A program made the translations under genes and the position numbers. A model generated the notes under the pieces. The model worked only from the letters and a program-made list of their open reading frames with translations. It searched no databases and had not been told where the DNA came from. Shown here one piece after another: positions 256-29,039 of a DNA stretch of 50,779 nucleotides. How positions within the stretch are numbered: the first letter of the stretch is position 1; every line of letters begins with the position of its first letter. The DNA is from an uncultured Candidatus Rokubacteria bacterium (lineage in GTDB: Bacteria > Methylomirabilota > Methylomirabilia > Rokubacteriales > CSP1-6), in assembly GCA_963848005.1 (NCBI GenBank), contig CAWKCA010000011.1, forward strand, positions 1 to 50,779. The letters are read 5' to 3'.

Positions 256-1209
256 ATGCTGTATATCATCTGGATGGTCATCCTTGCCGTGGTAGCCGCG
301 CTCCTGTTCACAGCCAGACGAAAGTTGACCGAGGTCAGTACCTACCGGCAATCCAAGGTCCTTTACCTTGCGAGCTTGGTAAGACCGGGGGGGATCGTGA
401 TCTTTATTCTTGCCCTCATGGTCTTCATCACGTTCGTTGCTTCCGTTCAGCAGGTGCCCGCCGGTCATATCGGTGTCGTCTATGAGTTTGGCGGCATCAA
501 AGGCCAGATCGGCGAGGGCCTCCAGTTTGTGGCGCCCTGGCGCGACGTCCTGCTGGCCAACATCCAAGTGCAGCGTCGCGTGTTCGACAAGCTCAACGCC
601 TTCAGCGAGGAAAGCCAGGATGTCTTTGTCAGAGCCAGTCTAAATGTCCGCGTTTCTCCGCAAACCATCCAGCAGCTGTATCGGACCGTCGGCCCCAATT
701 TTTTCAGTGTCTTGGTTGAATCGAGGGTCATTCAGAATTTCAAGGATGAAACAGTGAAATACAAGAGCGTCGAGATTGCCCCCAATCGCGAAAACATCAG
801 AAAGGCCGTCCGGGAAAGACTGGAGAGAGAACTCTCTCCCTTTTCGATCGAGGTGGTCGATTTGCTCCTCGACAACATCGACTTCAACCCGGACTTCAAG
901 AAGGCCATTGAAGATAAACAGATAGCCACCCAGCGCGCCCTGGAAGAGCAACAGAAAATTGAAGGGGAAAAGTACAAGGCTCAGCAGGCCATTGAAAGGG
1001 CCAAGGGAGAAGGGAGCGCCATTTTATTCCGTGCCGAGAAGGAGGCGGAGGCGAACAGAAAACTGGCTGCTTCTCTTACTCCGGAGCTCGTGCGGTACGC
1101 CATGGTTCAGAAGCTGAGCGACAAGATCCAGGTCATGATGCTGCCTTCAGGTCAGAACTTCATCCTGGATTCAGATATGCTGCGCGGCGCTCCACGAGAG
1201 AAGAAATAG
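256..1209 (+). CDS. SPFH/band-7 (prohibitin/HflC-like) membrane protein, copy 1
   Basis: Intact 317-aa ORF with an N-terminal TM helix, then an SPFH core and a coiled-coil Glu/Lys/Ala-rich C-terminus. GC is clearly lower (about 52%) than the flanks. A putative RBS ggaaggag lies upstream. Paralog of 28092..29039. Confidence 0.85.
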   Translation: MLYIIWMVILAVVAALLFTARRKLTEVSTYRQSKVLYLASLVRPGGIVIFILALMVFITFVASVQQVPAGHIGVVYEFGGIKGQIGEGLQFVAPWRDVLLANIQVQRRVFDKLNAFSEESQDVFVRASLNVRVSPQTIQQLYRTVGPNFFSVLVESRVIQNFKDETVKYKSVEIAPNRENIRKAVRERLERELSPFSIEVVDLLLDNIDFNPDFKKAIEDKQIATQRALEEQQKIEGEKYKAQQAIERAKGEGSAILFRAEKEAEANRKLAASLTPELVRYAMVQKLSDKIQVMMLPSGQNFILDSDMLRGAPREKK

Positions 1210-1400
1210 GACCTTCGAAAGTCATGGCCCTCTGAGGCGCCCCACCCTCGTCGCGCGAGTCGCCCGCGGCGCGCCGTCGATGATCCCGAGACGTCCGGGG
1301 AAATCCTGGCCGCCGCACGCCGTCATCTGACCGAGCCCGCCGGCTGACGGCGGGCCTTCCCGAACCTCCACCTGCATTGCGGATCGCCCAACGGACACCC

Positions 1401-2705
1401 ATGACGACGAACACGATCTCCAGCCCTTCTCGCACGAACCGTCTGCACTATGCCTGGGTCGTCCTCGCCACCACCACCCTCGTGCTCCTGGCCAGCGGCG
1501 GCGTCCGCGCGGCCATCGGCGTCTTCGTCAAGCCGCTCGAGGCCGAGTTCGGCTGGTCCCGGACCGCGCTGAGCTTTGCCGTGGCGGTGTCGATCGCCCT
1601 GTACGGGCTGACCGGACCGTTCGTGGGCCGGCTGGCCGACCGGTGGGGCCCCCGCTGGGTGCTCACCGGCGGTGTGGCCCTGGTGGGGATCGGCACCATG
1701 GCGGGCGCCGGAGTGAACCAGTTCTGGCAGTTCTTCGTGGCCGTCGGCCTGATCGCTGCCATCGGATCGAGTGCCACGGCGGCGCCGGTGGCCGCCACCG
1801 TGGCCACGCGCTGGTTCGAACGGCATCGCGGTCTCGTGCTGGGCATCAACGGCGCGGGCATGGCGGCCGGTCAGCTGGTGGTGCTGCCGCTCGCCATGGG
1901 GCTCGTCGCGGTGCTCGGCTGGCGGGGCGCGTACCTCGCCCTCGGCGCCGGGCTTCTCGTGATCGTCGTGCCCCTGACGGCGGCCCTGATCCGCAACGAT
2001 CCGAGAGAGCGCGGGCTCCTGGCCTACGGCGCCACCGCATCGTCGCCCGGCATGACGGCGGCCCAGGAGGCGGCGGAGCGGACCCCGGTCAGCGAGGCCG
2101 TGCGCACGTGGCCGTTCCTGCTCCTCTGCGGCAGCTTCTGGGTCTGCGGATACTCGACGTTCGGCGTCATCCTCGCCCACTTCATCCCGCACGCCACGGA
2201 TCACGGGTTTGAGCCGCACCACGCCGCGGAGGCCCTCGGCATCATGGGAGCGATGAACATCGTGGGCACCATCGCCTCGGGCTGGCTCTGCGATCGGCTT
2301 GGCCCCAAGGTGCCGCTGGCCCTCTACGATCTGTTCCGGGGGATCTCGCTCTTCTTTCTGCCCTACGTGACGACGGTGCCCGGTCTCTTCGCCTTCGCGG
2401 CGCTGTTCGGGCTCAATTTCATCTCGACCGTGCCGGCCACCACCACGCTGACCGCGCGGATCTACGGGCGCTACTCGGTCGGCGAGCTGTCCGGCTGGAT
2501 CTTCGCCTCGCATCAGCTCGGGGGCGCCATCGGCTCGATCCTGTCCGGCTGGCTGTTCGACCGCAATGGCGACTACACCTTGGCGTTCTACGCCGCGGGG
2601 GCCTGGGCGTTGCTCGCGACCGGGATGGTGCTCGCCATCCGCGACGAGCCCATCGTGCGGAACAAGCCGGCGTCCTTGGAGGTCCCAGCCGTCGCGTCGC
2701 CGTAA
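1401..2705 (+). CDS. MFS transporter (oxalate/formate antiporter-like family)
   Basis: Intact ORF with about 12 predicted TM segments and a typical MFS N-terminal motif (GPFVGRLADRWGPR). An ATG at 1401 is preferred over the TTG at 1377. Confidence 0.8.
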   Translation: MTTNTISSPSRTNRLHYAWVVLATTTLVLLASGGVRAAIGVFVKPLEAEFGWSRTALSFAVAVSIALYGLTGPFVGRLADRWGPRWVLTGGVALVGIGTMAGAGVNQFWQFFVAVGLIAAIGSSATAAPVAATVATRWFERHRGLVLGINGAGMAAGQLVVLPLAMGLVAVLGWRGAYLALGAGLLVIVVPLTAALIRNDPRERGLLAYGATASSPGMTAAQEAAERTPVSEAVRTWPFLLLCGSFWVCGYSTFGVILAHFIPHATDHGFEPHHAAEALGIMGAMNIVGTIASGWLCDRLGPKVPLALYDLFRGISLFFLPYVTTVPGLFAFAALFGLNFISTVPATTTLTARIYGRYSVGELSGWIFASHQLGGAIGSILSGWLFDRNGDYTLAFYAAGAWALLATGMVLAIRDEPIVRNKPASLEVPAVASP

Positions 2706-2737
2706 CCGGGAGGCCGCGCTTCGGCGCGTAGCCGACC

Positions 2738-3109
2738 TCACGCGGTGGTCGCCCGAGGCTGATCTGGGCGATCGGGCGAGCCATGACGCACCGCTGGTGC
2801 GCCTGTCCGCGCCAGCCCCGGGCGAGGTCGTTGGTCGCCCTCGGAGGAGAAGCGCACGGCCGCCTGCGCACGGGCCCTCGCGGCTTCGACGTCGCGATCG
2901 CGCAGAGGGGCCTTCGTCACGAGAGAATCGAGGAGCTCCCGGACGGCGTGCGCCACCTGGTCCACGGCCCGAGTGAAGGCGACCTCGTTTGCCTTGGAGG
3001 GCCGGGTAAAGCCGCTGAGCTTTCGCACGAATTGCAGCGAAGAGGCCCGGATCTCCTCGTCCGAGGCGGGCGGCGCGAAGTTATGGAGGGTCTTGATGCT
3101 TCGGCACAT
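2738..3109 (-). CDS. DUF2277 domain protein
   Basis: N-terminus MCRSIKTLHNF is characteristic of DUF2277. The ORF is divergent from the lodA-like operon. The C-terminal tail looks low-complexity, so the true end is uncertain. Confidence 0.5.
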   Translation of the reverse strand: MCRSIKTLHNFAPPASDEEIRASSLQFVRKLSGFTRPSKANEVAFTRAVDQVAHAVRELLDSLVTKAPLRDRDVEAARARAQAAVRFSSEGDQRPRPGLARTGAPAVRHGSPDRPDQPRATTA

Positions 3110-3509
3110 GAGGAATCCTCCTCGTGACGTGACGCGCGGCTCAGCCGCCGGAACCCGGCTCCCACAGATGCCCTCGGTGTTGCCCGCACGGTCGCCAGAG
3201 TGAGGATACGACAGCGCTGGTTCCTCGCCGACAACGACGATCGCAGACCCACAAGGTCACCGTGCCTCGTTGCCGCCTTTCGACCACGCGAGTCCTTGAT
3301 CATGATGGTCCCGTCGGAGGCCAGCCACACGAGCAGGATCGTCCTGATCAACCGCGCCACCGGCGGATGGTGGCGCAGCCGTGAGACGGATGCCAAGGAG
3401 GCGCGCGCGGTCCGCGCATGCGCCCTGGAGGAGCCGCCTGAACGCGCGACCCCGTGGTACAACCGGCGCGAACAGGGGCCGCGCCGCCGCTCAGGAGGAG
3501 GACAGCCGA

Positions 3510-5532
3510 ATGGCCGACAGGAAGCCCATCGTCCGGTGTGCGATCCACCCCGCCATCGGCGTTGCCCGCATCGGCAACGCGCCGGCGGATCAGTATTACC
3601 TCGCGCCGGAAGTGCCCGGACGACCCGCCGACCCCGGACCCGGCGGCTTCAAGAATGACAGGGGAGAAGTGCGCAAGGAGGCGTCCCGCTTCCGCATCTA
3701 CGGCTACGACAGGGACGGCAACGCGGTGCGGGAGATCACGGCCGACGACGCCGAGATCACGTGGGAGGTCCATCTCGCCAACCGAAAGGCCGCCTGGTAC
3801 CAGTTCTTCAACGCCATGGACCTCAAGCAGTACGCCATGTCGACCACCTATCGCAACGGAACCATCACCGGCGCCTCGCGCCAGTCGCTGGTGATCGATC
3901 CGGGTGCCATCGAGATCCGCGGGAGAGCCACCAGCGGGCCGGAGTATCGGTTCGACGGAGGGTTCATCCGCTTCGGCGGCGGCGAGCCCATCCGGGTGCC
4001 GCTCGGCGAGCTGCGCACCGACGACAAGGGCCGGCTCCTCGTCCTCGGCGGAGACGGCACGTCCGCGTCGGCCACCAATCAGCCCGCGATCACCTTCGCC
4101 AACAACGAAGGCTGGTACGACGACGTCTCGGACGGGCCGGTGCGCGCTCGGGTAAAGCTCGCAGGCCGAAGAGAGCCGCTGGACGCCGAGCCGGCCACGG
4201 TGGTGGTGACCCCTCCCAACTTCGGCCCTGGCCTCTACGGAGTGGTCACCATGTACGACGTGATCTACGACCTCTTCGTGCGGCATGGCTGGATCGAGCC
4301 GCCCAGGCGCGTGACGTTCTGGGAGCACATCTTTCCCCTGTTCGCGCGGCTGGTCGGGAGCCAGTGGGTCAATCAGGGTGCGTACTTCCTCTTCGGGGCA
4401 GGCTCGCCGGGTGACCTGACCGAGCCAGGGAGGCTGAGGAAGCTGGCGGATCCCAGCCGCGCGGCGCGCCCCGATCGCCAGCTCGTCTTCGACTGGTTCC
4501 GGCTCCCGCCGCCGCCCTGGGACTCCCCGGGCGCCCGGACCCGGCTACCTCCGCCACAGCCGTCCCACCTGCCGCCCTTTTACGGCGACGGCTTCGGCGA
4601 CTATGACGACATCGCCATCGATGAGCTGTCCCTCACCCCGACCCTGTACGGTTGGCTGAAGCGTTGGGCAGAGGGCGATTTCGTGCCGGGCCAGCGCCGT
4701 GAGCCGCCGCGACGCCTCGCGGATCTCCCCCTCGCCGCGCAGCCCGGTGCGCTCGACCGCACGCCCCTGGAGGATTGCCTGGGCGGGCCGTTCCATCCCG
4801 GCATCGAGATGACCTGGCCGATGCGGGTGCCCCGCATGTGGCGGCCGCCCGCCAGGGCCCACGGGCTGCCGTTCCGGCTGCACATCCTGCCGCCGGGCGT
4901 GCCGCCGCAGGATGACTTCGGCGCGGTGCTCACTCCGGAAACGTGCGTCGGGCCCGAAGGGCCGCTGACGGCGAGCGGGCCGGGTTCGCTCACGCGCTGG
5001 CTCGGCATTCCCTGGCAGACCGATGAGGCGAGCTGTCTCTCCGGCTACGACTCGTCGAACTATCTGCCGGTTCCCTCGTTCTGGGCCGCCCGCGTGCCGA
5101 ACGAGGTGCTGAGCGAGCACGCCTACAACCAATCGACCGATCGCCGGCTCTCGTACGTCCAGCGGATCAAGAGCGCCGCGTATCGCCAGTTCTGGCTGCG
5201 CGACCTCCAGGGATCGAGCTACCAGGCCCGCATCAACAACATGGTCAGGGAGTGGAGTCTCCTGGGCATCGTGGTCGAGCAGCACCGGACCGGCGGGCGA
5301 AGCGAAACCGGGGCTGCCGGCGCGTTCCTGGGTGGAGACGCAGCGGTCTCCGTCGTTCAGCGACGCCGATCCGACCTGGCGCCAGCTCCTGATGGTGGAG
5401 GGGATCGAGGCCACGACCGAACGCCTCAGGAAGGCGGCCACCCCGATCCTCGACCTGGCCGCCGAGCGAGAGGAGCAGGCCGTCCGAGGTCGTCCATCCG
5501 CGGCGCCGGAACATCCGGCGCGACGATCGGTG
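3510..5532 (+). CDS. lodA: LodA/GoxA-family tryptophylquinone (CTQ) amino-acid oxidase; 3' end frameshifted
   Basis: Hallmark LodA-family motifs are present: IHPAIGVARIGN, WEVHLANRKAAWY, LRTDDKGRLLVLGGDG, GWYDDVSDGPV, HPGIEMTW, and a PWQTDEAS Trp-quinone region. AGGAGGAG RBS sits 8 nt upstream of the ATG at 3510. After about 5283 the sensible protein continues in the +1 frame (DPTWRQLLMVEGIEATTERLRKAATPILDLAAEREEQAV), which implies an indel. Confidence 0.8.
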
Positions 5533-5534
5533 AC

Positions 5535-6875
5535 GTGGAGCGCGCGCCGCACGTGGCCATCGTGGGCGGCGGTCCCGCCGGCGCAGTCGCCGCGCTGGTC
5601 GCTGCCCGGCGCGGGCTGCGGGTGACCGTCGTCGAAGCGCGCGCCGAACCGGCGCTCAAGGTGGGTGAGACCCTGCCGCCGGGTCTCACCCCGCTCCTGC
5701 GCCATCTCGGCCTCGAAGCCTCGCTGGAGCGCGACGGCCATCTGCGCTCGCAGGGCAACCGCTCCTTCTGGGGCTCGACGCATCCCGGGGAGAGCGCGTT
5801 CCTGGCCAATCCATTCGGCGCGGGCTGGCACGTGGACCGCCGCCGCTTCGAGGCGCGCCTCTCCGAAGCCGCTCGCGAGGCCGGGGTGGAGTGGCGCCGG
5901 GACTGTCGCGCGGAGGCCTGCACCGTCCTGGGGGGCGGTTGGCGGATGGAGCTGTCCAGCGGAGACCACACGGAGGAGCGGCTGACGCCGGGACGAAGAC
6001 GGAGCGCGATCCTGGACGTGGATTTCGTGGCCGACGCCACGGGCCGGGTCGCCCGCATTGCGCAGCGCCTGGGCGCCAGGAGGCTGCGCTACGATCGGCT
6101 CGTCGGCGTTGCCGCGCTTCTCACCAGCCGGACTCCGGCGGCCGACACGTACACCCTGGTCGAGGCCACGCCGGACGGCTGGTGGTACTCGGCCCTCCTC
6201 TCCGACGGCCGTCTGGCCGTCGGCCTTCTGGGTGACGGCGACCTCTTGACGCGATCGCTCCTCGGAGTGGGCGCCGCTCCAGAGGCCTGGTGGCGTCGCC
6301 TGCAGCGGACCTCCGCGACCGTGGAGCGCGTCGAGGGGAGCGGATACGAGACTCCGGCCTCTCTGCGCGTCCTGCCGGCGGAGAGTTCGCGGCTCGACGT
6401 CATCGCCGGCGATCGCTGGATCGCCCTCGGGGACGCCGCGGCGGCCTACGATCCCCTCTCGTCCCACGGCGTCGCCTCTGCCATGGGATCGGGCTTCTAC
6501 GGCGGTCACGCCATCGTCGATTTGCTCGCCGGCCGGGGCGAGGCGCGCCTCGCCTACCTGGATCTCATGCAGCGGACCTACGGCACCTATCTCGACCTGC
6601 AGCGCGAGCACTACGGGCGGGAGACCCGCTGGCCCGACGCGCCCTTCTGGAGCCGCCGCCATGCGCCGGCGTACGGGCTGGCGCCGCTGGCGTCCCGCGC
6701 CTTGGCGATGCGCGATCCAAGCGGCGGGGTCGGATCGTCGATCGGGCGATCGATCGATATGAAGAGCGGCCTCCGTCCTCCACAGTCTCCCGGTAAGATC
6801 GTGGACGGCGCGACGGGGCGTCGTGCGACAGTGACGGGCGCCGAAGGCTCGTCACCAGGGAGACCACGCGAATGA
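5535..6875 (+). CDS. lodB: LodB-like FAD-dependent oxidoreductase (CTQ cofactor biogenesis flavoprotein)
   Basis: Rossmann FAD motif HVAIVGGGPAGAVAALVAARRG immediately follows the lodA-like gene. Candidate GTG starts are at 5535 and 5553. It is in the same frame as the lodA ORF, giving an apparent 1164-aa fused ORF 3381..6875. The stop overlaps the next start as ATGA. Confidence 0.7.
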   Translation: MERAPHVAIVGGGPAGAVAALVAARRGLRVTVVEARAEPALKVGETLPPGLTPLLRHLGLEASLERDGHLRSQGNRSFWGSTHPGESAFLANPFGAGWHVDRRRFEARLSEAAREAGVEWRRDCRAEACTVLGGGWRMELSSGDHTEERLTPGRRRSAILDVDFVADATGRVARIAQRLGARRLRYDRLVGVAALLTSRTPAADTYTLVEATPDGWWYSALLSDGRLAVGLLGDGDLLTRSLLGVGAAPEAWWRRLQRTSATVERVEGSGYETPASLRVLPAESSRLDVIAGDRWIALGDAAAAYDPLSSHGVASAMGSGFYGGHAIVDLLAGRGEARLAYLDLMQRTYGTYLDLQREHYGRETRWPDAPFWSRRHAPAYGLAPLASRALAMRDPSGGVGSSIGRSIDMKSGLRPPQSPGKIVDGATGRRATVTGAEGSSPGRPRE

Positions 6876-8056: not shown

Positions 8057-8140
8057 CGCGCCACCAAGGTGCGCGACGAGAGCGCGGAACAGCACACGTG
8101 ATCGTCCTGATAGGCCACTGAGCCACGTGGAGGACGCGCC

Positions 8141-10536: not shown

Positions 10537-12935
10537 CTACGAGGCTTTGCTCACTCGGCAGAGCGTCGAGCGGTGGGGGGTGCCGCCGCTGACGGGGTCG
10601 TGCTGGTCGTTGTGGACGAGGAGGTTTTGGTTGGCGCCGGCTTCGGTGAAGGGGTCGAAGCCGGGGAGGCCGAGCTCGGGGCAGGCTTCCCACCAGCCAT
10701 GGGAGCAGCAGACGACGCCGGGGAGGATGGTGTCGGTGACGTGCGCTTGAGCGCGGACCCGGCCGCTCGGCGTTTCGACCACGATCCATTCGCCTGACGT
10801 GATGTCGAACTCTCGCGCGGTGTCCGGATGGATCTCGGCGGTGGGATTCGGCGCGGTCTTTCTCAGGCTCGGGAGCCCGCGGAGCTGGCTGTGCATGTAC
10901 TGCGGGCGCTTGGCGTTCGTCAGCACCAGCGGGAAGCGCGCGGCCAGATCCGGACGGCTCCGCGGGCTCAGCGCGGGCTCGACGTAGACGGGCAGGGCCG
11001 GCAGCCCGTGGTCGGCGAATCGGGTCGCGAAGATCTCCACCTTCTTCGTCGGCGTGGCGAAACCCCGCGGCGCTCCCCGACTCTCGTCAAGGTCGGCGAA
11101 CTTCCGGTAGCGCACTGGCGTGCCCCTGACCGATGTCCCGTAGGGGAGCGCCCGGAGTTCCTCGAGGCTCAGGCCGCTCGGCTTGAGCAACTGGCGATAG
11201 CCCGCCTCGACGTCGCCCTCCCAGAACACGTCGCCGAGGCCGAGCCGCGTGGCCAGGGCGAAGATGATGTCGACGTCCGAGCGCCGTTCGTACCGCGGCG
11301 GCACGACGGCCTCGCGGAACTGGACGTGGGCCATCGCATCCAGCGGGTAGCGGTGACCGACCTTGAGGGCCGGCGATTCCATCCAGCTCGCGGCGGGGAG
11401 CAGGACGTCGGCGAATCGGCTCGTGGGCGTGTGCACGAGCTCGATCTGGGCGAAGAACTCGAGCGCCTCGAGCGCGCGGGCGCCGCGCCGCGAGTCGCCG
11501 TTGGCCAGCAGCATGTTGGCGCCGAACGAGATGATGGCGCGGACGGGATAGGGCTCGCCGTCGAGGATCGCGCGGTAGAGGTCGTACGCGGTGACGGTGC
11601 CCGGCGTCACGGGCGGACCGATCGGCCGCTCGGCGCGCCCGAGCCGGAGCGCGGCCATCGCGCTCGGCAGCGCCGCGCGTCCGCTCACGTCGTCGACGCG
11701 CGGCGAAGGGCCCGGGCACGTTGCCGCCGGGCTGGTCGAAATCGCCGAGCAGCGCGTAGAGGATCTCGATCGCCCGCGAGGCCTGGGTGGCGTTGGTGTG
11801 TTGCACCAGGCCGTTGTGGAAGTAGTGCGACACGGGCCGGTGCGCGGCGAGCAGCCGCGCCGCCGCCACGACCCGGTCGGCCGGCGCGCCCGTGATGCGC
11901 TCGACGACCGCGGGCTCGAACTCGGCGGCGATCGAGGCCAAGCGCTCGAAGACCGGGCGACACGTCACCGTGGTGCCGTCGGCGAGCCGGACCTCGCGGC
12001 GGCCGGTGAGCCTCAGGGGCACGTCGGTCGCGTACGCGCCGCGCCTCGTGTCGTAGCGCACGAGATCGCCATCCACGTCGCTGACGGCGACGTAGGAGCC
12101 GCGACGCGTCACCGTCGAGATCGCTGCCGGCCAGGAGCGCGCCCGTGTCGTCGCGCACCAGGAACGGCGCATTCGTCCACTCGCTCACGAACGCGGCGTC
12201 GTACCCTCCGTCGCGAATCAACAGATGGATCAGGCCCAGGGCCAGCGCGCCGTCAGTGCCCGGCCGGACCTGCAGCCACACGTCCGCCTTGTTGGCCAGC
12301 CCCACGCGGCGCGGATCGACCACCAGCAGCTTGGCCCCGCGCGACTTGGCCGCTGCGATGTCGGTGGCCATGCTCAGGAAGTTGCCGTTCGGGTTCGAGC
12401 CCCACAGGACGATGCAGGCGCTGCGGGCGACGTCGGGCATGGGCAGCGCAGGCGTGCCGAACGTGTACTGCGCCCCGCCGGTGTCGCGCGGCCACTGGCA
12501 GAGGTGCGTGGTGCCGCCGATGTTCGGCGTGCCGAAGTGATTGATGAGCCGCTGGAGCCAGCGCTCGGAGTCGGTGAGCGCGGTGCCGCCCACCGTCCCC
12601 TTGTTGAACGCCACCGCCTGGGCCCCGGAGGAGGCGCGGATCTCCAGCATCTTGCGCGCGATTAGATCGAGCGCCTCGTCCCAGCCACACGGCTCCCAGC
12701 CCGGGTCCGGATCGCTCTTGGGTCGCGTGCGACGCAGCGGCACGTTCACGCGCTCGCGATGATCGTGGAACTCCGGCGCCGCCCGCCCCTTCGAGCAGAT
12801 CGCGCCTCCGTACGGATGCTCCCGGTCGGGCTCGACCGAGAGCACGCGCGCGCCGTCCGCCGTGGTGACGACCGGACAGTGCACGGCGCAAAATCCACAG
12901 TACCCCTTGACCTTCCGCAACGTGTCCACGCGCAT
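10537..12935 (-). CDS. Molybdopterin (bis-MGD) oxidoreductase, DMSO-reductase/formate-dehydrogenase superfamily; at least 2 frameshifts
   Basis: N-terminal 4Fe-4S cysteine motif GYCGFCAVHC. The molybdopterin and MGD-binding domains are spread over three minus-strand frames (11685..13088, 11087..12172, 10537..11688). ATG at 12935 with a GGAGAGG RBS. Confidence 0.75.
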
Positions 12936-14820: not shown

Positions 14821-15855
14821 TGCGCGTCGCCATCGGCCTCCGGCTGGAAGCGAACGAGGACTGGGCCAAGGCGTCTGACTACGTCACCGAAGCGGAGCGG
14901 CTGGGCGTCGACTTCGTCTGGTCGCATGAGTCGTGGGGGCTCGACGCCGCCACGCCCCTGGCCTTCATGGCCGCCCGCACCTCGCGCATCCGCCTCGGGT
15001 CGGGGATCATGCAGGCGGGAACTCGCACGCCGGCGCTGATCGCCATGACCGCGATGAGCCTCGCCTCGATGTCGAACGGCCGCTTCGCGCTGGGGCTCGG
15101 CGTGAGCGGCCCCCAGGTGATCGAGGGCTGGCACGGCATCCGGTTCGATCGGCCGGTGACGCGCATGCGCGAGACGGTCGAGATCGTGCGGCGCGCCGTT
15201 GCGGGGCGAGCGCGTGGCCTACCAGGGCCACGTCTACGAGCTGCCCCTGCCCGGCGGCGAGGGCAAGGCGCTGAGATCGTCGGCCAGCCCGCGGCCCGAC
15301 GTCCCGATCTACCTGGCCACGCTCTCCCCGCGCAGTCTCGAGATGACCGGCGAGATCGCCGACGGGTGGCTCGGCACGTCGTTCATGCCGGACCACGCGC
15401 GCGTCTTCTTCGACCACCTCGAGGTCGGCGCGAAGCGGGCCGGCCGCTCGCTCGCGGACCTAGATTTACAGTGTGGCGGCGCCGTGGCCTTCGGCGACGA
15501 CGTCGAGCGGCTGGTCGCCGCGCGCAAGCCGGGGCTGGCGTTCACCCTGGGCGCCATGGGCTCGCGCCAGCACAACTTCTACAACGACGCCTTCCGGCGC
15601 GCGGGCTACGAGGACGCGGCGCGCGAGGTCCAGCGACTGTGGCTGGAGGGGAAGCGCGACGAGGCGGCGGCGCGCGTCCCCGACGAGCTGGCGCTGAAGG
15701 CCAACCTGCTCGGCACCGAGCCGATGGTGCGCGAGCGCCTCGCGGCCTATCGCCGCGCGGGAGTCACCACGGTGCGCGTCGATCCCGCGGGCGCCACGCT
15801 GGACGCGCGCGTGGCCACGCTCGCCCATCTCATGGACCTGGTCAAGCAGGCGTAG
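14820..15855 (+). CDS. LLM-class F420/flavin-dependent oxidoreductase, one frameshift near 15205
   Basis: N-terminal half (MRVAIGL..GWHGIRFDRPVTRMRETVEIVRRA) is in the frame of ORF 14463..15884. The C-terminal half (GERVAYQGHVYELP...MDLVKQA) is in 15199..15855. The start overlaps the DinB stop. Confidence 0.75.
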
Positions 15856-16025
15856 TCGCTCGCCTTCCCCTCAGAGCCCGTTAACGAATCGCATTGTCGA
15901 GGGACGCCACGGCTGCGCCGGGGCGCCCCGAGCGCCGGGGGTTGGGGGGCGCCCGGAGCCCCCCATGTACTCAGACGAGAGGGCACGCCAGTCCGCCCGG
16001 CGGCGAAGAGCGGGAAGGGGCTCCG

Positions 16026-17566
16026 TCAGCGAGGCTTCTTGAGGAAGAGATTGACGTCGTCCGGGGTGATCAGGTCGGGCGCGGTCCAGCCGTCGAGGTC
16101 GTACTCGGCCATGCACTGCTCGGCGAAGCCCCGGAACTGCTGCGGCCTGGCCGCTCGCCTGGGCCATCTGCAGGTGATGATGCGGATGGTCTCGGCGGCG
16201 CCGGCGTAGTTGCGCTCGTACAGCTCGTGGCGGCCGCCGAACTCGGTGCCCACGGCATCCCACAGAAGCTTCATCAGCTTGATGCGCTCGACGGCGTTGG
16301 TGCCATCCGAGCCGCGCAGATACTTGTCCAGATACGGGCGGAGCGCGGGCGACTGGAAGTCCGCCGCGTGCGAGTTCATGTAGATCAGGCCGCTGGCCAG
16401 GATGCTCTCGGTCAGCTCCTTGATGCGCGGATAGGCGACGGTGGAGAAGACGCGGTAGGCCTGGGCATACTCCGGGTTCGGCAGCACGCGTGCCTCCGGC
16501 CCACGGCCACGGGCGCGCGGGCCATGGCGTCGCTCAGGCCCCAGAACAGGTTGCGCCAGGCGATGGCCTCGCCGACCGACGCCTGCACGTTGCGACTCTC
16601 GCTCGAGCCGACGGCGTCGACGGCCTTGAGGAGCAGGCCGGCGATGAAGTCCAGCTTGACGGCCAGACGGGTGCAGCCGTGGAACATCGCGCGCGGGAAG
16701 AAGCCGGAGTGCGAGAAGAAGGTGTTCGACTTCTCGACGTCCTCGTAGACGAAGACGTTCTCCCAGGGCACCAGCGCGTGATCGAGGACGAGGATGGCGT
16801 CGTTCTCGTCCATCCGGCTGGAGAGGGGGTAGTCGAACGGGCTGCCCATCACCTCGGCGGTCATGGCGTAGGACGGGCGGCAGATCAGCTTGACGCCCGG
16901 CGTGTCCATGGCGGCGATGAAGGTCAGCGCGAATTCCTTCTTCTTGATCGGCACGGTGCTCGGATGGGCGATGAAGTTGTAGTGGGTGAGCGCCGAGCCG
17001 GTGGCGACGACCTTGGCCCCGCTGACGATCAGGCCCGCGTCGGATTCCTTCTCCACGTGCACGTAGACGTCGGTCGACCTCGTCCGGCGGGCGGTGGCGA
17101 TCCACCGGGGGCTGCACGAGGGCGTGATTCATGAACAGCACGCGCTCCTGGGCGGCGCGGTACCAGCGCCGGGCGTTGTCCTGGTACGGGGCGTAGAACT
17201 CGGCGTTGGCGCCGAGCGTGGCCAGGAAGGCCGCCTTGTAGTCCGGGCGAGCGGCCCATCCACCCGTAGGTCAGGCGCGCCCAGGCCGCGATGGCGTCGC
17301 GCGCTTCCACCAGCTCGGTCGCGCTGGTCGGAGCGCGGAAGAACTTGTGCGTGTAGCCGTCCGAGCCGGTGTCGGTGGCGCACGTCAGCACGCTCGCGGG
17401 TGGCCGGCGCGTGCAGCGCCTCGTAGAGCCGCGCCAGCATGCGCGCGGGGTTGCGAAAGGCCGGGTGCGCCGTCACGTCCTCGACCCGCTCGCCGTAGAT
17501 CCAGATCTCGCGCCCCTCGCGCAGGGATTCCAGAAATTCGTTCCCGGTGAAAGGTCGAGTGGACAT
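16026..17566 (-). pseudogene. HpaB-family two-component flavin monooxygenase oxygenase subunit (4-hydroxyphenylacetate 3-hydroxylase-like), at least 4 frameshifts
   Basis: N-terminus MSTRPFTGNEFLESLREGREIWIYGERVEDVTAHPAFRN and a C-terminal region conserved across the family. Gene pieces lie in frames 17129..17584, 17029..17391, 16412..17062 and 16026..17141. Probably sequencing indels rather than decay. Confidence 0.65.
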
Positions 17567-21169: not shown

Positions 21170-21375
21170 TCTGGCCTCCTCAATGGGGCATGGGCACTCG
21201 GGCTATCGCCACGCCCATGCCCCGCCGGGTGCCGCTCTGCGTTTGTTCTCCCGCGTGATGTGGATCGCGCCGACTGTGCCGATCGCCACGTCCATGCCCC
21301 GCGGATTCCCGCTCTGCGTTTGTCGTCCGGGGCGTGGGAGTCGCGACTCCTGTCGTCTCGCGCCCATGCCGTAGA

Positions 21376-22380: not shown

Positions 22381-23345
22381 CACGCTTCCACCAGATGGCA
22401 GGCGGCGATCTGATCGGGTGCGGCCCGCCGGAGCGCGGGCTCGTCCACGGCGCACCGCGACTCCGCCACCGAACACCGGGGATGAAACCGGCAGCCGGCG
22501 GGTAACGCCTTCAGGCCCGGCATCATGCCGGGAATGGCGCCGAGCCGGTCGCTTCCCTCCAGGCCCGGCAAGCAGGCCATCAGCGCGCGGGTGTACGGAT
22601 GGGCGGGCGCCCGAAAGATGGTCGCGATGGACGCTTCCTCGACGATGCGTCCCGCGTACATCACGATCACGCGGTGGCACATCTGCGAGACGATGCCGAG
22701 GTCGTGGGAGACGAGGAGCACGGCCATCCCCATCTCCCGGGCGAGCTGCCGGATGAGGGCCAGCACCTGGGCCTGGATGGTCACGTCGAGGGCCGTGGTC
22801 GGCTCATCCGCGATCAGCAAGGTGGGCACGCAGGACACGCCCATGCCGATCATCACGCGCTGGGCCATGCCGCCCGAGAACTGGTGCGGGTAGTCGCGCA
22901 CGCGCAGGGCGGCCGACGGAATGCCGACCCGAGCCAGGATCTGCACCGCCCGCCGGCGCAGCGCCCCCCGGCCGTCGCCCAGATGCAGCGCCATGGCCTC
23001 CACGAGTTGATCGCCGACGCTGAAGACAGGGTTCAGGGACGCCCCGGGGTTCTGGAAGATCATCGCGATCTCCTTGCCCCGGATGCGGGCCAGCGCCGCC
23101 TCCTCGAGAGCCAGGAGATTCCGCCCGCGGAAGCGCACCTCGCCGCTCACGCGTCCGGGCGGGCATCGGATCAGGCCGAGCACGGCCTCCGATGTGAGCG
23201 TCTTGCCGGCGCCCGATTCACCGACGAGGCCGACGATCTCCCCGCGGTCGACGGAAAAGCTCACCCCGTCGACCGCCCGCAACGGACCGTCCTCGGAGAG
23301 GAACTCGACGACGAGGTCGCGCACCTCGAGGACGGGCTCGGTCAT
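22380..23345 (-). CDS. ABC transporter ATP-binding protein (DppD/OppD-like)
   Basis: Walker A GESGAGKT, signature FSGGMAQRV, and a C-terminal Cys-containing extension. ATGA overlaps on both sides. Confidence 0.8.
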
Positions 23346-24259
23346 CGGCGAAGCCGCGGGTCGAGGGTGTCGCGGAGACCGTCGCCGAGGAGGTTCAGGC
23401 CGACGATCGTCACCATGAGGGCAATCCCGGGGATCGTGGAGATGTGCGGGGCCATCACGATGAAGTTCCGCCCCTCGGCGATCATCGAGCCCCACACCGG
23501 GGTGGGCGGCGGCGGGCCCAGGCCCAGGAACGAGAGGCCGGATTCGGTGATGATGGCGCCGGAGACGCGCAGCGCCGCCTGCACGATGATGGGGGCCAGC
23601 ACGTTGGGCAGCACGTGGCGGGCGATGATGGCCGGCCGCTTCACGCCGGCCAGACGCGCCGCCTCGATGTAGGGTTCTTCCTTCACGGCGAGGACGTCGG
23701 CGCGGGTGACGCGCGCAAACGGCGCGATGAAGCCGACGGCCACGGCGATGATGACGTTCTTCACGCCGAAGCCCATGACCGCCATCATGGCAATGGCCAG
23801 GATGATGATGGGAAAGGCGAAGAGGCCGTCCATCACGCGCATGATCAGCACGTCCATCCAGCCCCCGTAGTAGCCGGCGACGAGGCCGAGGGTGACGCCG
23901 ATGGCCATGGCCAGCAGCACGGACACGATGCCGACGATCAGGGCGATGCGGGCGCCGTAGATGATGCGGCTCAGCATGTCGCGCCCGAAGCTGTCCGTCC
24001 CCGCCCAGTGGCTCCACGTCGGCCCCTGGTTCGCCGGCCCCACCCCCTGAGCGAGCGGGTCATAGGGGGCAAGCACGTTGGCGAAGATCGCCATGACGAC
24101 GACGGCGAGGAACACCGCGAGGCCAAAGACGGCGCCGCGGTTCCGGGCAAACCGGCGCCACCACCGGCGGGTGCTCGACGGTCCGCGCGCCTCGGCGACC
24201 TCGCCCGACGACGGCGCGGGGGCAGGAAGCGCATCGTCAACGGTCAGCGGTCGCGCCAT
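23342..24259 (-). CDS. ABC transporter permease (DppC/OppC-like)
   Basis: Intact ORF with 6 TM helices and the EAA-like motif region. ATGA overlaps the flanking genes. Confidence 0.8.
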   Translation of the reverse strand: MARPLTVDDALPAPAPSSGEVAEARGPSSTRRWWRRFARNRGAVFGLAVFLAVVVMAIFANVLAPYDPLAQGVGPANQGPTWSHWAGTDSFGRDMLSRIIYGARIALIVGIVSVLLAMAIGVTLGLVAGYYGGWMDVLIMRVMDGLFAFPIIILAIAMMAVMGFGVKNVIIAVAVGFIAPFARVTRADVLAVKEEPYIEAARLAGVKRPAIIARHVLPNVLAPIIVQAALRVSGAIITESGLSFLGLGPPPPTPVWGSMIAEGRNFIVMAPHISTIPGIALMVTIVGLNLLGDGLRDTLDPRLRR

Positions 24260-25263
24260 CACGTCACCCGGATGCGCGGGTTGAGAAACGCGTAGGTGAG
24301 GTCGACCGCGAGGTTCACCACGACGATGGCGAAGACGCCGACCAGGATCGCCCCCTGCACCACCGCGTAGTCGCGGTTCAGGATCGCCGCCACCGTCAGG
24401 CGCCCCATGCCGGGGATGCCGAAGACCGTCTCGGTGAGCACGGCGCCGCCCAGGAGGGTCCCGAACTGGAGCCCGATCACCGTCACCACGGGGATGAGCG
24501 CGTTGGCCAGGGCATGCCGGTACACGAGCGCCGCGCGCCGCACGCCGCGCGCCCGGGCCGCCTTGATGTAGTCGAGATCGAGCACCTCGAGCAGACTCGA
24601 CCGGATGATGCGCGCGACGAGCCCGGAGAAGAAGGTCCCGAGGGTGACGGCGGGGAGCGCGAGCCTCCACATGCTGTTCCAGAAGTCCTGCCAGGGGGCC
24701 ACGTAGCCCACGGCCGGAAACCAGCCGAGATACACGCTGAAGATCCAGATGAGGACGATGCCCTTCCAGAAGCCCGGCATGGAGTACACGAAGATGGCGA
24801 ACCCCATGGAGCCCCAGTCCCAGGCGCTGTCTTTGCGCATGGCGGCCACGATGCCGGAGGGGACGGCGATCAGGACCCCGACGATCATGCTGGCCACCAC
24901 GAGGGTCAGGGTCGGCTGAAACGCCTCCCACACGAGGCGGTTCACCTGCTCGTGGTTCAGATACGAATCGCCGAAGTCGCCGCGCAGGATCGCCTCGAGC
25001 CAGATCAGGTACTGGATGACGATCGACCGGTCGAAGCCGAGCTTGGCCCGCAACTTCTGGTAGGCGTCCTGGGTGAAGTCGTCCCCGAGGATCATCATGA
25101 TGGGGTCGCCCGGAATCAGGCGCATGAGGGCAAAGATGATCACCGACACCGTGAAGAGCACGGCGAGCGTCTGTCCGAAGCGGGAGAGGAAGAATCGGAC
25201 CACCCCGAGTTGACCCCCGACGGTCAGGTCATCGTTGGCCTGGGATGGCGTATGGTATACCAC
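24259..25263 (-). CDS. ABC transporter permease (DppB/OppB-like)
   Basis: Intact 334-aa ORF with BPD_transp_1 permease features. The exact start is uncertain. Confidence 0.75.
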   Translation of the reverse strand: MVYHTPSQANDDLTVGGQLGVVRFFLSRFGQTLAVLFTVSVIIFALMRLIPGDPIMMILGDDFTQDAYQKLRAKLGFDRSIVIQYLIWLEAILRGDFGDSYLNHEQVNRLVWEAFQPTLTLVVASMIVGVLIAVPSGIVAAMRKDSAWDWGSMGFAIFVYSMPGFWKGIVLIWIFSVYLGWFPAVGYVAPWQDFWNSMWRLALPAVTLGTFFSGLVARIIRSSLLEVLDLDYIKAARARGVRRAALVYRHALANALIPVVTVIGLQFGTLLGGAVLTETVFGIPGMGRLTVAAILNRDYAVVQGAILVGVFAIVVVNLAVDLTYAFLNPRIRVT

Positions 25264-25322
25264 ATCGCGCGATGGGCACCGGCTGGATGAGTGCGCGCAA
25301 CGCTTCGAGCGAGGAACGACCG

Positions 25323-26150
25323 ATGGCCAACCACGCCGAACCGCTCGTGGTCACTCGCCTCGAGGATCGCGGCGAGGCCGGCCGGGTGGCCCACGTGCTG
25401 GTGAACAATCCCGAGAAGCGCAACGCCCTCGGGCAACACGGCAAGGACGAGCTGATCGCCGCCTTCGAGAGGCTGGCCCGCGATCCACACCTGCGGGTGG
25501 TGGTGCTGACGGGCGCCGGTGACAGGTCATTCATCGGCGGCGCCGACCTCGCGGAGATGGCGGGTCTCGATCGCGCCGGTGCGGAAATCGTCAGCACCAA
25601 GACCCACCTGGCGTGCGACGCCATCCGGCGGCTGCCCGTCCCTGTGATTGCCCGCGTGAACGGCTACTGTCTGGGAGCGGGCATGGAGATCGCCGCCTCG
25701 TGTGACATGCGCGTCGGCGTGGAGACCGCGCGATTCGGCATGCCGGAGGTGAAGTTCGGCATTCCATCGGGCATGGAGGCCTGCCTGCTGCCGGGGCTGA
25801 TCGGCTGGGGCAAGACGCGCGAGCTCGTCTTCACCGGCGAGATGATCGACGCCCAGGAGGCGTATCGCTGCGGCTTTCTCGACAGGCTCGTGCCCGTCGG
25901 CGAGCTGGATGCCGCCGTCGAGCGCTGGGTCTCGGCGATCTGCGCCGCGGGCCCCCGCGCGATCCGGCTCCAGAAGACGCTGGTGGGGGACTGGGAACGT
26001 CTGCCGATCGCGGAGGCGGTGCAGCGAGGGATCCGCGCGGTGGCGGAGGCGCGCGCCACCGATGAGCCGCGGCGTTTGATGGAGGCCTTCGTGAACCGCC
26101 GGCGCCCGTCACCCCCCGAGGCGCGCGGCAATCCCCGGGACGACCATTGA
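25323..26150 (+). CDS. Enoyl-CoA hydratase/isomerase (crotonase) family protein
   Basis: Intact ORF with crotonase-fold motifs (VVLTGAGDRSFIGGADL, NGYCLGAGMEIA). Confidence 0.8.
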   Translation: MANHAEPLVVTRLEDRGEAGRVAHVLVNNPEKRNALGQHGKDELIAAFERLARDPHLRVVVLTGAGDRSFIGGADLAEMAGLDRAGAEIVSTKTHLACDAIRRLPVPVIARVNGYCLGAGMEIAASCDMRVGVETARFGMPEVKFGIPSGMEACLLPGLIGWGKTRELVFTGEMIDAQEAYRCGFLDRLVPVGELDAAVERWVSAICAAGPRAIRLQKTLVGDWERLPIAEAVQRGIRAVAEARATDEPRRLMEAFVNRRRPSPPEARGNPRDDH

Positions 26151-26339
26151 CGCAGAGCCCGTTTACCCCGATCCTCGGCGCATCGCGGAACGGGAGGTGA
26201 TCGCGTCACTGATCGAGCGGGCCTGGGCCCGGAGAGGGGCGAGACGAGGAACGGTGCGACCCCGGTGAGGGCGGGCCCGAATGGGCAAGCAACTGATCGG
26301 AGAGCAACGAAGCTTACCCGGCAGCCATGACCGGAGGAG

Positions 26340-27913
26340 AGCATGGGTCCATATCGGAGAAGCGCGGATCGCGCGACCGCATCGCCAGATCGCTCTGCTG
26401 CTGACCGTCGCCGCGCTTGATGCTGGGGCGGCCCAGGGGCGGCCGCCCAGCAAGGGTCGGCGGGCGAGGCGGTCATCGCCTGGCACGTCACCATCGCCCC
26501 CACCTGGTTCGATCCGTCCACCGCCCCAGCGCAGATCACGCCGTTCGGGATGCTGTACGCCATCCACGACGCGCTGGTCCGGCCACTGCCCGGGGCAGAA
26601 GATGAGCCCGAGCCTGGCCGAGTCGTGGACGCAGAGTCCGGACGGGCTGGTGTACGAGTTCAAGCTCCGCCGCGGGCTGAAGTTCCACAACGGCGACCCC
26701 GTCACCACCGAGGACGTGAAGTTCAGCTTCGAGCGCTACAAGGGGGCCGGGGCCAACGAGCTCCAGACGCGCGTCAAGCAGGTGGAGATCGTGGATCCCC
26801 TCACCGTGCGCTTCCACCTCAAGGAGCCCTGGCCGGACTTCATGACCTTCTACGGGACGACGGCCACGGCGGCCGGCATCGTCGTCCCCAAGAAGTACGT
26901 GACGCAGGTCGGGGACGACGGGTTCCGGAAGCATCCCATCGGCGCCGGTCCCTACAAGTTCGTGAGCCACAAGCCCGGGGTCGAGGTGGTGCTCGAAGCC
27001 TATCCGGGGTACTGGCGGCATGTGCCCTACGTCAAGCGAGTACATCATGAAGAGCGTCCCCGAGGGGACCTCGCGGGTCGCCATGCTGAAGAACGGCGAG
27101 GCCGACATCGCCTATGCCCTGGATGGCGAGGATGCCCTGAACGTGAGACGGGACCCGCGACTGCAGCTCGTCCCCTCCAAGCACGCCTCCATCTTCTGGA
27201 TCGAGTTCGCCGAGCAGTGGGATCCCAAGTCGCCGTGGCATGACAAGCGCCTCCGCCAGGCGGTGAACTACGCGCTCGACCGCAAGGCCATCAACGAGGC
27301 GGCCTGCCTGGGCTACTGCCCGCCCGCCGGGGTCATCGTGCCGCGGGTGATGGAGTTCGCCCTCCAGACCACACCGCCGGCCTACGATCCGGCCAAGGCC
27401 AAGCAGTTGCTGGCCGAGGCGGGATACCCGAAGGGGTTCGACGCCGGCGAGCTGTCACCGATTCCGCCGTTCTTCACGGTCGCCGAGGCCTCGATGAACT
27501 TCCTGAGCGCGGTCGGCATCCGGACGAAGATGCGGCCGATGGAGCGGGCGGCCTTCTACGCGGCGTGGCGGGAGAAGAAGCTGCGCCCGCTGTTTCTCAC
27601 CGCCGCCGGGAATTCCGGCAATGCCGCCAGCCGCGTGGAGGCGTTCATGTTCACCGGCGGGAGCTACGCCTACGGTGGCTATCCCGACCTCGACGACCTC
27701 TTCCAGCAGCAAGCGCGGGAGCGGGACCCGGCCCGGCGCGAGGCGCTCCTCCACCGCATCCAGCAGCTCACCATCGACCGGGTGATGTTCGCGCCCATCA
27801 TGGACTACCGCACCTTGCGGGGGGTGGGACCGCGCGTGGCCGAGCACATGCTCGACTCGATGCACCTGGTGCCCTTCTCCGCCTGGGAGGACGTGAAGCT
27901 CAAGAGCCAGTAA
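26340..27913 (+). pseudogene. ABC transporter substrate-binding protein, family 5, at least 3 frameshifts
   Basis: The SBP_bac_5 domain is split across frames 26281..27243, 26417..26605 and 27020..27913. Probably indel errors. Confidence 0.6.
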
Positions 27914-28091
27914 GCACGCGGGTCTGGGGCCCGGCGGGCTCGCCGGGCCAGACTCCGCCTCAGGAGCAGGAGCGCTATGCGGCGCTCCCGTGACCACGCG
28001 CCCTCGGCGATCCGTGCCGAGCTGCTCCACTTCTGAGCGCCCGGACCTCCTTGAGGACCTCATCCGCCAGAGATCTCTCGTCAGAGGTGTC

Positions 28092-29039
28092 CTATCTCTT
28101 TTCTTTTGGAGCGCCTCGCAAGATATCCGAGTCCAGGATGAAGTTCTGCCCTGAAGGGAGCATCATGACCTGGATCTTGTCGCTCAGCTTCTGAACCATG
28201 GCGTACCGCACGAGCTCCGGAGTAAGCGAAGCCGCCAGTTTTCTGTTCGCCTCTGCCTCTTTCTCGGCGCGGAATAAAATGGCGCTGCCTTCCCCTTTGG
28301 CCCTTTCGATGGCCTGCTGAGCCTTGTGTTTTTCTCCTTCAATCTTTTGTTGCTCTTCCAGGGCGCGCTGCGTCGCGATCTGTTTATCTTCAATGGCCTT
28401 CTTGAAGTCCGGGTTGAAGTCGATGTTGTCCAGAAGCAAATCAACCACCTCGATCGAAAAGGGGGACAGTTCTTTCTCCAGTCTTTCCCGGACGGCCTGT
28501 CTGATCTTTTCGCGGTTGGGGGCAATCTCCACGCTCTTGTATTTCACCGTTTCATCCTTGAAATTCTGAATAACTCTCGATTCAACCAAGACATTGAAAA
28601 AGTTGGGGCCGACGGTCCGATAGAGCTGTTGGATGGTTTGCGGGGACACCCGAACATTGAGACTGGCTCTGACAAACACATCTTGGCTTTCTTCGCTGAA
28701 GGAGTTGAGCTTATCGAACACGCGACGCTGCACCTGGATATTGGCGAGCAGGACGTCGCGCCAGGGCGCGACAAACTGGAGTCCCTCGCCGATCTGGCCT
28801 TTGATGCCCCCAAATTCATACACCACGCCTATATGGCCGGCCGGCACTTGGTGGACGGACGCGAAAAACGTGATAAAGGCCATGAGGGCCAGGATCAAGA
28901 ACCCTATCGGTCTCCGCAAGCTGGCCAGGTACAGTAGCTTCGATTGCCGGTAGTCCCGGATCTCTGGCCCGTTTCTCCGGGCTGTGAAAAGGAGCACCGC
29001 GATCACCGTAAGGACGACCATCGAGATGACATAGGGCAT
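28092..29039 (-). CDS. SPFH/band-7 (prohibitin/HflC-like) membrane protein, copy 2
   Basis: 315-aa paralog of 256..1209, about 93% aa and about 95% nt identity in the core. It shares the low-GC signature, and the homologous upstream region (gacagc..gaaaggaataacc vs gacagc..ggaaggagtagccc) is duplicated too. Confidence 0.85.
   Translation of the reverse strand: MPYVISMVVLTVIAVLLFTARRNGPEIRDYRQSKLLYLASLRRPIGFLILALMAFITFFASVHQVPAGHIGVVYEFGGIKGQIGEGLQFVAPWRDVLLANIQVQRRVFDKLNSFSEESQDVFVRASLNVRVSPQTIQQLYRTVGPNFFNVLVESRVIQNFKDETVKYKSVEIAPNREKIRQAVRERLEKELSPFSIEVVDLLLDNIDFNPDFKKAIEDKQIATQRALEEQQKIEGEKHKAQQAIERAKGEGSAILFRAEKEAEANRKLAASLTPELVRYAMVQKLSDKIQVMMLPSGQNFILDSDILRGAPKEKR

Follow-up and report, generated by a model that had tools for sequence, protein, structure and literature searches.

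The window considered here is the whole of a 50,779-bp contig (CAWKCA010000011.1) from the metagenome-assembled genome (MAG) of a soil Candidatus Rokuibacteriota bacterium, and it carries two genes for prohibitin-like proteins of the SPFH superfamily, copy A and copy B (Table 1). A preliminary description of this DNA had placed two open reading frames (ORFs) at 256..1209 on the plus strand and at 28092..29039 on the minus strand, and both are intact and match these coordinates exactly. The inverted arrangement about 27 kb apart that it reported is also present, with 26,876 nucleotides (nt) separating the repeat arms. A repeat finder returned a sole long inverted pair, with arms at 393-1212 and 28089-28908 (820 nt, 90% complementary) and a weaker extension at 216-402 and 28893-29079 (72%). 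The similarity of A and B is far above chance, with a nucleotide identity of 87.0% over 969 nt and one 6-nt indel (blastn, E = 0). This identity is unevenly distributed, being 91% over 451-1209 of copy A and 75% over 256-450; the figure of about 95% given earlier for the core is thus too high, whether the 820-nt arm (90%), the core (91%) or the whole (87%) is taken. The proteins are 90% identical overall, 96.4% over residues 66-317 and 65% over the N-terminal 65 residues, in agreement with the earlier remark that the N-terminal membrane region is the diverged part of the pair. Taken together, the observations described below indicate that the window probably holds two long-diverged copies of a stand-alone prohibitin gene, each inherited vertically in its own locus, and that their inverted orientation is incidental.

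Table 1. Features of the two SPFH genes, of the DNA between them, and of the structural differences found on the 3' side of the gene between close relatives (L numbers designate related loci).
Feature	Position or comparison	Strand	Description
Copy A, intact prohibitin-like SPFH gene	256..1209	+	317 amino acids (aa); two N-terminal hydrophobic segments, Band_7 domain, C-terminal coiled-coil-like K/E/Q/A-rich stretch
Copy B, intact prohibitin-like SPFH gene	28092..29039	-	315 aa; second hydrophobic segment 2 codons shorter than in copy A
Copy A leader	216..255	+	about 40 nt upstream, family-conserved; ribosome-binding site AAGGAG
Copy B leader	29040..29099	-	about 57-60 nt, family-conserved; CTGGTCAGTTGAT-N5-GTGAGC-N2-GACAGC, then ribosome-binding site AAGGAA
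Intervening segment	1210..28091		26.9 kb of ordinary high-GC metabolic and transport genes, several truncated or frameshifted; outside the repeat
3'-side difference	B/L005		complete change of neighbour
3'-side difference	L001 10943-20420 vs L007		9.5-kb block
3'-side difference	L002 10965-11452 vs L013/L014		indel of about 480 nt
3'-side difference	L002 vs L009		inverted block
3'-side difference	L078 1515-1626 vs window 1234 (A/L078)		112-nt indel

The homology between the copies is confined to the gene and a short leader. It stops 6 nt past the stop codon, and the alignable upstream region, put at about 60 nt in the preliminary description, comes to about 40 nt at about 70% identity, ribosome-binding site included. 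Homology between A and B, and between A and other loci, begins at 215-244, and that of the copy B leader with L001, L005, L006, L076 and L077 begins at 29096-29099. In copy B and these five relatives, the motif CTGGTCAGTTGAT-N5-GTGAGC-N2-GACAGC lies about 30-57 nt before the start codon in contexts that are otherwise unrelated, and the copy A leader has it only in degenerate form. This conserved motif may be a promoter or operator. An alignment of the leaders gave no conserved RNA fold (-1.05 kcal/mol), an Rfam scan of the window, leaders included, found no family, and neither copy has a sigma-70-like promoter or a convincing terminator.

Both genes are real, paralogous and prohibitin-like, as had been claimed. 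The Pfam Band_7/SPFH profile (PF01145) matches copy A with an E value of 4.9e-27 and copy B with 1.5e-28 (95.5 and 100.5 bits, against a gathering cutoff of 23.6), and the nearest solved structures are prohibitins: all 7 matches in a PDB sequence search were eukaryotic prohibitin 1 or 2 (E 2e-18 to 1e-5, and 2e-18 to 1e-14 for full-length prohibitin chains). Plasmid homologues carry the annotation 'prohibitin family protein'. Two hydrophobic segments, located by hydrophobic windows, precede the SPFH domain, and a coiled-coil-like stretch rich in K, E, Q and A, read from the sequence, follows it. Neither an NfeD domain nor a common partner gene was found near A, near B, or in 10 other loci. With an anchor, an SPFH domain, a coiled coil and no NfeD partner, the predicted A and B proteins are of the stand-alone 'p-prohibitin' SPFH4 type, which has been described as a stand-alone gene lacking an NfeD partner (Hinderhofer et al. 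2009, PMC2636767). That survey found most SPFH genes to be without GC or codon anomalies (PMC2636767). Identification as HflC was rejected, as the NCBIfam equivalog model TIGR01932 scored 34.9 and 39.2 bits against a cutoff of 134.4 and no second SPFH gene is adjacent. Both copies look functional, in that the ORF is intact and a separate ribosome-binding site and conserved leader are present in each. Judged from homologues, their proteins most likely form ring- or cage-like membrane scaffolds, which would act as modulators of FtsH or another membrane protease or else organise microdomains of the membrane.

The age of the pair becomes apparent when relatives are considered. More than 110 of 120 protein clusters listed in a search were 85-92% identical to copy A, and nearly all were 315 aa long; these listed clusters come mostly from JGI and ENA metagenomes, and the named relatives are Candidatus Rokuibacteriota. 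Full-length proteins of the A type (317 aa, P0123) were found independently in JGI metagenomes. In many related genomes the gene is present with a core nucleotide identity of 85-98%, and the p-prohibitin family is widespread in Rokubacteria/Methylomirabilota. Within the core, A and B are 91% identical to each other, as against 88-92% between either of them and other species and 96% between B and L005. The Nei-Gojobori synonymous divergence (dS) of the A and B cores is 0.48, with a nonsynonymous divergence (dN) of 0.016; for the N-terminal 65 codons, dN is 0.21 and dS 0.78. Family-wide, the core shows a dS of 0.11-0.85, a dN mostly of 0.002-0.03 and a dN/dS mostly of about 0.01-0.05. The high nucleotide identity of the gene thus follows from extreme protein conservation, that is, from a very low dN (0.01-0.02). 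The SPFH/coiled-coil core would be under very strong purifying selection, and the membrane anchor would be more loosely constrained.

In a neighbour-joining tree of the core, A joins L078 and B joins L005, both groupings with 100% bootstrap, and the two copies do not form a sister pair. The dS of the SPFH gene tracks that of its syntenic neighbours, which indicates that the gene descends vertically with its locus: it is 0.47 against 0.49 in the adjacent DinB-type polymerase gene for L001-L007, 0.22 against 0.12-0.19 in the flanks for B-L005, and 0.40 against 0.62-0.80 for L002-L009. Recent spread among Rokubacteria was rejected as the reason for the high nucleotide identity on the grounds of this agreement between gene and flanks. 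Judged by these distances, A and B separated as long ago as species that share 85-89% identity in their flanking genes. A recent inverted duplication within the genome was likewise rejected, in that the copies are not closest relatives (91% versus 88-92%), have separate orthologues, differ by a dS of 0.48 and show no exchange. The two genes, which are of a known kind, are best read as old paralogues or xenologues. Two copies were found in 1 of 13 other MAGs (L010 and L014, in one bin). The second copy may stem from an old duplication kept here and lost elsewhere or, alternatively, from uptake from a related Rokubacteria lineage, which is slightly favoured because most genomes show a single copy.

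The preliminary description drew attention to a GC content about 15 points below the surroundings and to AT-rich codons, and both are borne out. GC is 0.538 in A and 0.541 in B, compared with 0.686 for the window, and all other 1-kb bins of the window have a GC of at least 0.628. GC at third codon positions (GC3) is 0.69 in A and 0.71 in B, compared with 0.90 for 22 neighbouring background genes. In A and B, AAA accounts for 29-43% of Lys codons (4% in the background), GAA for 48-60% of Glu (15%), ATT for 21-29% of Ile (6%) and AGA for 30-33% of Arg (2%); the codons AAA, GAA, ATT, TTT and AGA are used at 3-15 times the background rate, and the synonymous-codon log-likelihood of the two genes lies about 4.5-5 standard deviations below that of neighbouring genes, with a z of about -4.6. 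When the A and B proteins were recoded with background codons, GC rose to 0.62, so that about half of the 15-point deficit is due to amino-acid composition and about half to synonymous choice. The low GC would then come about equally from a protein rich in K, E, I, F, Q and N and from atypical synonymous codons.

This composition is not peculiar to the present genome. The family was compared in 14 close-relative loci, one genome per species (GTDB), and in 14 of 14 the SPFH gene has a GC of 0.52-0.59 and a GC3 of 0.64-0.81 against flanks of 0.63-0.71, whatever the phylum of the bin; it lies 10-16 GC points below its flanks in every high-GC host. In another Rokubacteria genome, a more distant paralogue with 51% identity (L015 10001-10941) is even richer in AT, with a GC of 0.52 and a GC3 of 0.54 against flanks of 0.66. 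The nearest relatives outside the Rokubacteria group, L011 (80% aa identity) and L012 (76%), lie on contigs of 54-56% GC with gene GC values of 0.55 and 0.47. As it is common to all 14 relatives and to the L015 paralogue, the atypical composition is a family trait across the lineage and, on this comparison, not a mark of recent import into the present genome. The proposal that the gene was horizontally acquired and then duplicated thus finds no support: its low GC is family-wide, the distance between A and B is no smaller than that to other species, and each has a separate orthologue. Any foreign origin would precede the radiation of the sampled lineages and would not be specific to the present genome. 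A codon bias of highly expressed genes was rejected as an explanation, GroEL having a GC3 of 0.95 in a related contig. The low GC3 has been kept across lineages despite a dS of up to 0.85, the majority-consensus GC3 (0.68) being equal to the tip mean. Third-position AT-to-GC versus GC-to-AT changes in the SPFH gene numbered 83:72 by majority rule and 56:65 in close pairs, counts obtained by a biased method, since the control, solute-binding-protein orthologues with a GC3 of 0.92, gave 9:70 and did not recover its own composition.

According to the preliminary description, the 1-kb repeats could mediate inversion of the intervening segment. In its full form this explanation has a foreign low-GC gene enter the genome and become duplicated in inverted orientation, the repeats then mediating RecA-dependent inversion of the 27-kb segment. 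The atypical composition and codon usage and the inversion of the copies are consistent with it, and the closest non-Rokubacteria relative, L011, lies in a 56%-GC genome that matches its gene GC of 0.55. RecA-dependent recombination needs a minimum of about 25-30 nt of identity; the A-B alignment has two exact runs of at least 30 nt, one of 68 nt (coding positions 820-887) and one of 53 nt (616-668), and both exceed this minimum. Around the 68-nt run, synonymous diversity is low throughout the family. Along the gene as a whole it is roughly uniform, and the 15-codon window with the smallest value does not reach significance (permutation p = 0.16); an embedded nucleotide-level element was rejected on these grounds. 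Against the inversion, a divergence of 9-13%, as found between the repeats, lowers RecA-dependent recombination by orders of magnitude, and the 13% divergence overall would strongly suppress homologous recombination. Inversion requires a crossover within the genes, which would be expected to leave hybrid genes, and each copy is of pure type: with the orthologue as reference, 82 sites from column 10 to 955 support A with L078 and B with L005 versus 3 that conflict, and no crossover or gene-conversion tract between A and B was detected among these informative sites. No recombinant junction was found in L005, L078, L079 or the other compared loci, alternative junctions occur in no related contig, and the duplicated sequence ends at gene boundaries. 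Given also that A and B are as far from each other as from other species (dS 0.48), that each has its own orthologue and that low GC is family-wide, this combined account of import, duplication and inversion is very improbable. A programmed invertible segment was rejected as well, since the repeats are whole genes and not short sites and the genes annotated between 1.3 and 29.9 kb, a stretch with some unscanned short gaps, include no recombinase domain. Inversion is possible in principle and unsupported here, and the inverted arrangement would be an incidental result of the positions of the copies and no working inversion device. A further reading, which we regard as rather unlikely, is that the AT-rich, rare-codon composition is actively maintained, that the region just past its 3' end is a preferred breakpoint of genome rearrangement, and that the second copy leads to mixed rings. 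A GC3 of about 0.7 (with many AGA, AAA, GAA, TTT and ATT codons) against about 0.9 for the other genes of this high-GC phylum would then have been kept through a dS of up to about 0.85, possibly by rare-tRNA- or nucleoid-protein-dependent control of a stress-membrane scaffold, or by escape from a GC-favouring force. If this were true, the second, anchor-diverged copy would give mixed rings with altered membrane targeting.

Two other explanations concern the 3' side of the genes. An independent JGI contig, L078, matches 1..1234 of the window at 96.6% and, after a 112-nt insertion, 1232-1264 again; L079 matches 1..891 at 97.9% and then diverges within the coding sequence; and L005 is collinear with 32780..28091 at 95.3%. 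At the sequence level, L078 and L079 thus confirm copy A from its upstream flank through the coding sequence to 55 nt beyond it, and L005 confirms the upstream flank and full coding sequence of B. It could be argued that one copy or a 3' junction is an assembly artefact, namely a chimeric join made through a gene that co-occurring Rokubacteria strains have in common, in which case the two copies would not lie 27 kb apart in a single genome. The contig begins 255 nt before copy A, many related contigs break off within or beside the SPFH gene (L005, L009, L010, L013, L014, L078, L079), L005 diverges exactly at the B stop codon, L079 diverges inside the coding sequence, and both 3' junctions lack support from other contigs. 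Yet both copies are true to type from end to end, the last 30-60 nt included, so that a misjoin could have occurred only between strains of the same type, with an SPFH gene still at that spot; L078 shares the first 55 nt downstream of A, and the remaining intergenic stretches hold no repeat to seed a misjoin. An artefact of this kind is therefore improbable. The same 3' differences might mean that the SPFH gene behaves as a mobile or recombination-prone cassette the size of one gene, or that its 3' end is a preferred insertion site, with the two copies at the borders of rearranged DNA. Across loci, what is conserved is always the leader of about 40-60 nt together with the coding sequence; the contexts number at least 7, the neighbours being unrelated metabolic and housekeeping genes, and in five close pairs the structural difference starts no more than about 30 nt past the SPFH stop codon, with the upstream flank collinear (Table 1). 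A DDE transposase, the sole transposase neighbour among the loci, adjoins the gene in L076, and a tRNA-Phe gene lies 61 nt downstream in L003. What speaks against a cassette is that the downstream sides have no motif, hairpin or direct repeat in common, that the flanks examined contain no integrase or recombinase, and that there is no plasmid or phage carrier; the extra DNA of L001 is of an ordinary kind, encoding a Kup potassium transporter, an MMPL transporter, a cytochrome P450 and an NAD-dependent epimerase; dS matches that of the flanks, as under vertical descent; and short metagenomic contigs are biased to end at variable regions. The tendency towards 3'-side breakpoints is possibly inflated by these breakage habits, and the cassette reading is improbable. 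A cassette or attachment (att) site at the 3' end was rejected for want of a shared motif in the 150 nt downstream of the gene in 19 loci. Mobile carriage or a defence role was rejected as well: no plasmid or phage relative exceeds 32% identity, and there is no PADLOC match. The window contains no tRNA, and no integrase, transposase or tRNA adjoins A or B. A recently acquired genomic island was also considered and rejected; the composition is atypical, yet the gene and its low GC are common to many Rokubacteria and the borders lack mobility genes and tRNA.

Several points weigh against two vertically inherited, long-diverged copies. The backbone of the gene tree is star-like, with bootstrap values of 11-58%, and the statement that A and B are not sisters therefore depends mainly on their equal distances and separate orthologues. 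Copy number per genome is drawn from incomplete MAGs. The polarisation method, being biased, does not separate an equilibrium from a slow amelioration of GC3, and the predicted function is drawn from homology only. L005, a 95%-identical relative, parts from the window exactly at the B stop codon, and independent support ends at 1264 on the 3' side of A and at 28091 on the 3' side of B (to 27913). When JGI metagenomes were searched with the solute-binding protein encoded next to B, 80 loci were obtained, with a highest aa identity of 85%, none of them at strain level and none with an SPFH gene nearby.

The surroundings of the two genes are ordinary. Copy A is followed by an MFS transporter gene; B has a family-5 solute-binding-protein gene as its convergent neighbour and a nitroreductase gene as its divergent one. 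The intervening segment has a GC of 0.63-0.73 per kb, and according to the repeat finder no other long repeat joins its ends. Its Pfam matches comprise an MFS transporter, DUF2277, LodA with a FAD-enzyme ORF, a class-V aminotransferase, TauD, TauE, a molybdopterin oxidoreductase fragment, luciferase-like monooxygenases, DinB_2, an HpaB fragment, NIPSNAP, nitronate monooxygenase and parts of an oligopeptide-type ABC transporter. At 3381-6875 on the plus strand, one ORF of 1164 aa joins LodA_N and LodA_C (L-lysine epsilon-oxidase) to a flavoenzyme domain of the Trp-halogenase/FAD_binding_3 type, which from the reading frame is an apparent LodA-LodB fusion or the result of a lost stop codon. Genes that look frameshifted or truncated lie at 26281-27913, 29962-30865, 10537-11688, 15199-15855 and 16412-17062. 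For the family-5 solute-binding protein there are two overlapping ORFs in place of one; Pfam profiles are matched only in part by the molybdopterin oxidoreductase, one luciferase-like gene and HpaB; and the gene at 29962-30865, which we take to be 3-hydroxyisobutyrate-dehydrogenase-like from its translation and without a profile scan, is split by one extra G at 30337 compared with L005, where it is intact. These broken genes are either pseudogenes or consensus errors of the MAG. Elsewhere in the window, four tandem paralogous genes lie at 41500-46993 (repeat families D1-D4, spaced by about 1.1-1.3 kb), and a motif of 40-45 nt, GCCGCTGAGCG...GGCGTTCGCCGCACA, occurs at 41500, 41522, 43796, 45054 and 46949 (families D6 and D8). 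A G/C-rich element of 43 nt is present in inverted orientation 33 kb apart, at 15931-15973 and 49215-49257 (81% complementarity), and a 56-nt unit within 21196-21328 is repeated at 21196 and 21273, with a spacing of 77 nt and 80% identity.

Further observations concern the relatives. In L005, the SPFH stop codon is followed at 4676-4850 by a short ORF starting MADDGSQQSTTVWPLPKFRFQVKWD, which weakly matches the T4 gp19 tail-tube protein profile (PF06841) with an E value of 0.008, below the cutoff; this suggests that a contractile-tail or injection-system gene adjoins the SPFH gene in that strain. L004, L005, L007, L010 and L014, with flanks of 63-71% GC, are binned as Acidoferrum, Nitrospirales, Binatia and Armatimonadota, and L005, which bears the label 'Nitrospirales', shares 4.7 kb with the window at 95.3% identity. 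These odd phylum labels probably reflect mis-binning of short contigs. On the 361-kb contig of L077 (1-20948), the SPFH gene lies amid genes for GroES/GroEL, HSP20, two Usp proteins and an HtrA-like protease, with a rhomboid protease directly upstream, a stress/proteostasis context that is absent from the other loci. Damaged copies were found in L013 (1367-2209, with an internal deletion of 185 nt compared with L002) and in L079 (913-1578, which leaves the family at codon 212), and only 263-268 codons are callable in L076 (9986-10792).

A low-GC, high-identity pair in a high-GC contig thus mimics a fresh transfer, a duplication and an inversion switch, where relatives show an old, lineage-wide gene. 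Contigs of soil metagenomes repeatedly break at the SPFH gene, which is also present in bins labelled as other phyla, and it calls for caution in binning and in calls of horizontal gene transfer in Rokubacteria. The sole unusual feature is the family-wide use of atypical codons in an extremely conserved membrane-scaffold gene of a high-GC phylum, which poses a small puzzle; otherwise this is ordinary biology, and the gene is of a known kind.

Compared with known repeat-mediated inversions, such as those between rrn operons or insertion-sequence copies, the window is alike in that two inverted copies of about 1 kb bracket a 27-kb segment. Those inversions use near-identical repeats, whereas the repeats here are 87% identical, have no exchanged tracts and show no alternative junctions in relatives. 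HflK and HflC, the FtsH modulators, belong to the same superfamily, and JGI annotates homologues as 'regulator of protease activity HflC'; in the window, the HflC equivalog model failed, an adjacent hflK-hflC pair is lacking, and neither ftsH nor hflX occurs among the annotated genes. With the rings of mitochondrial PHB1 and PHB2 (PDB 8rrh, 9o6s, 9unl, 9urz), the SPFH domain and coiled coil align over about 215-250 residues (E 1e-18 to 1e-14), and in both cases a single genome has two paralogues. PHB1 and PHB2 have become well differentiated, whereas A and B are 96% identical in the core and are not co-transcribed. An obligate A/B heteromer is unlikely because most relatives have a single copy; A/B hetero-oligomers are plausible only by analogy with the PHB1/PHB2 rings. 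With the p-prohibitins of SPFH4 (PMC2636767), A and B share the Band_7/SPFH domain, the N-terminal anchor, the C-terminal coiled-coil-like region and a single-gene cistron without NfeD, and they differ from them in that two diverged copies occur on one contig, the anchor has two predicted hydrophobic segments and not one, and codon usage is strongly atypical for the host.

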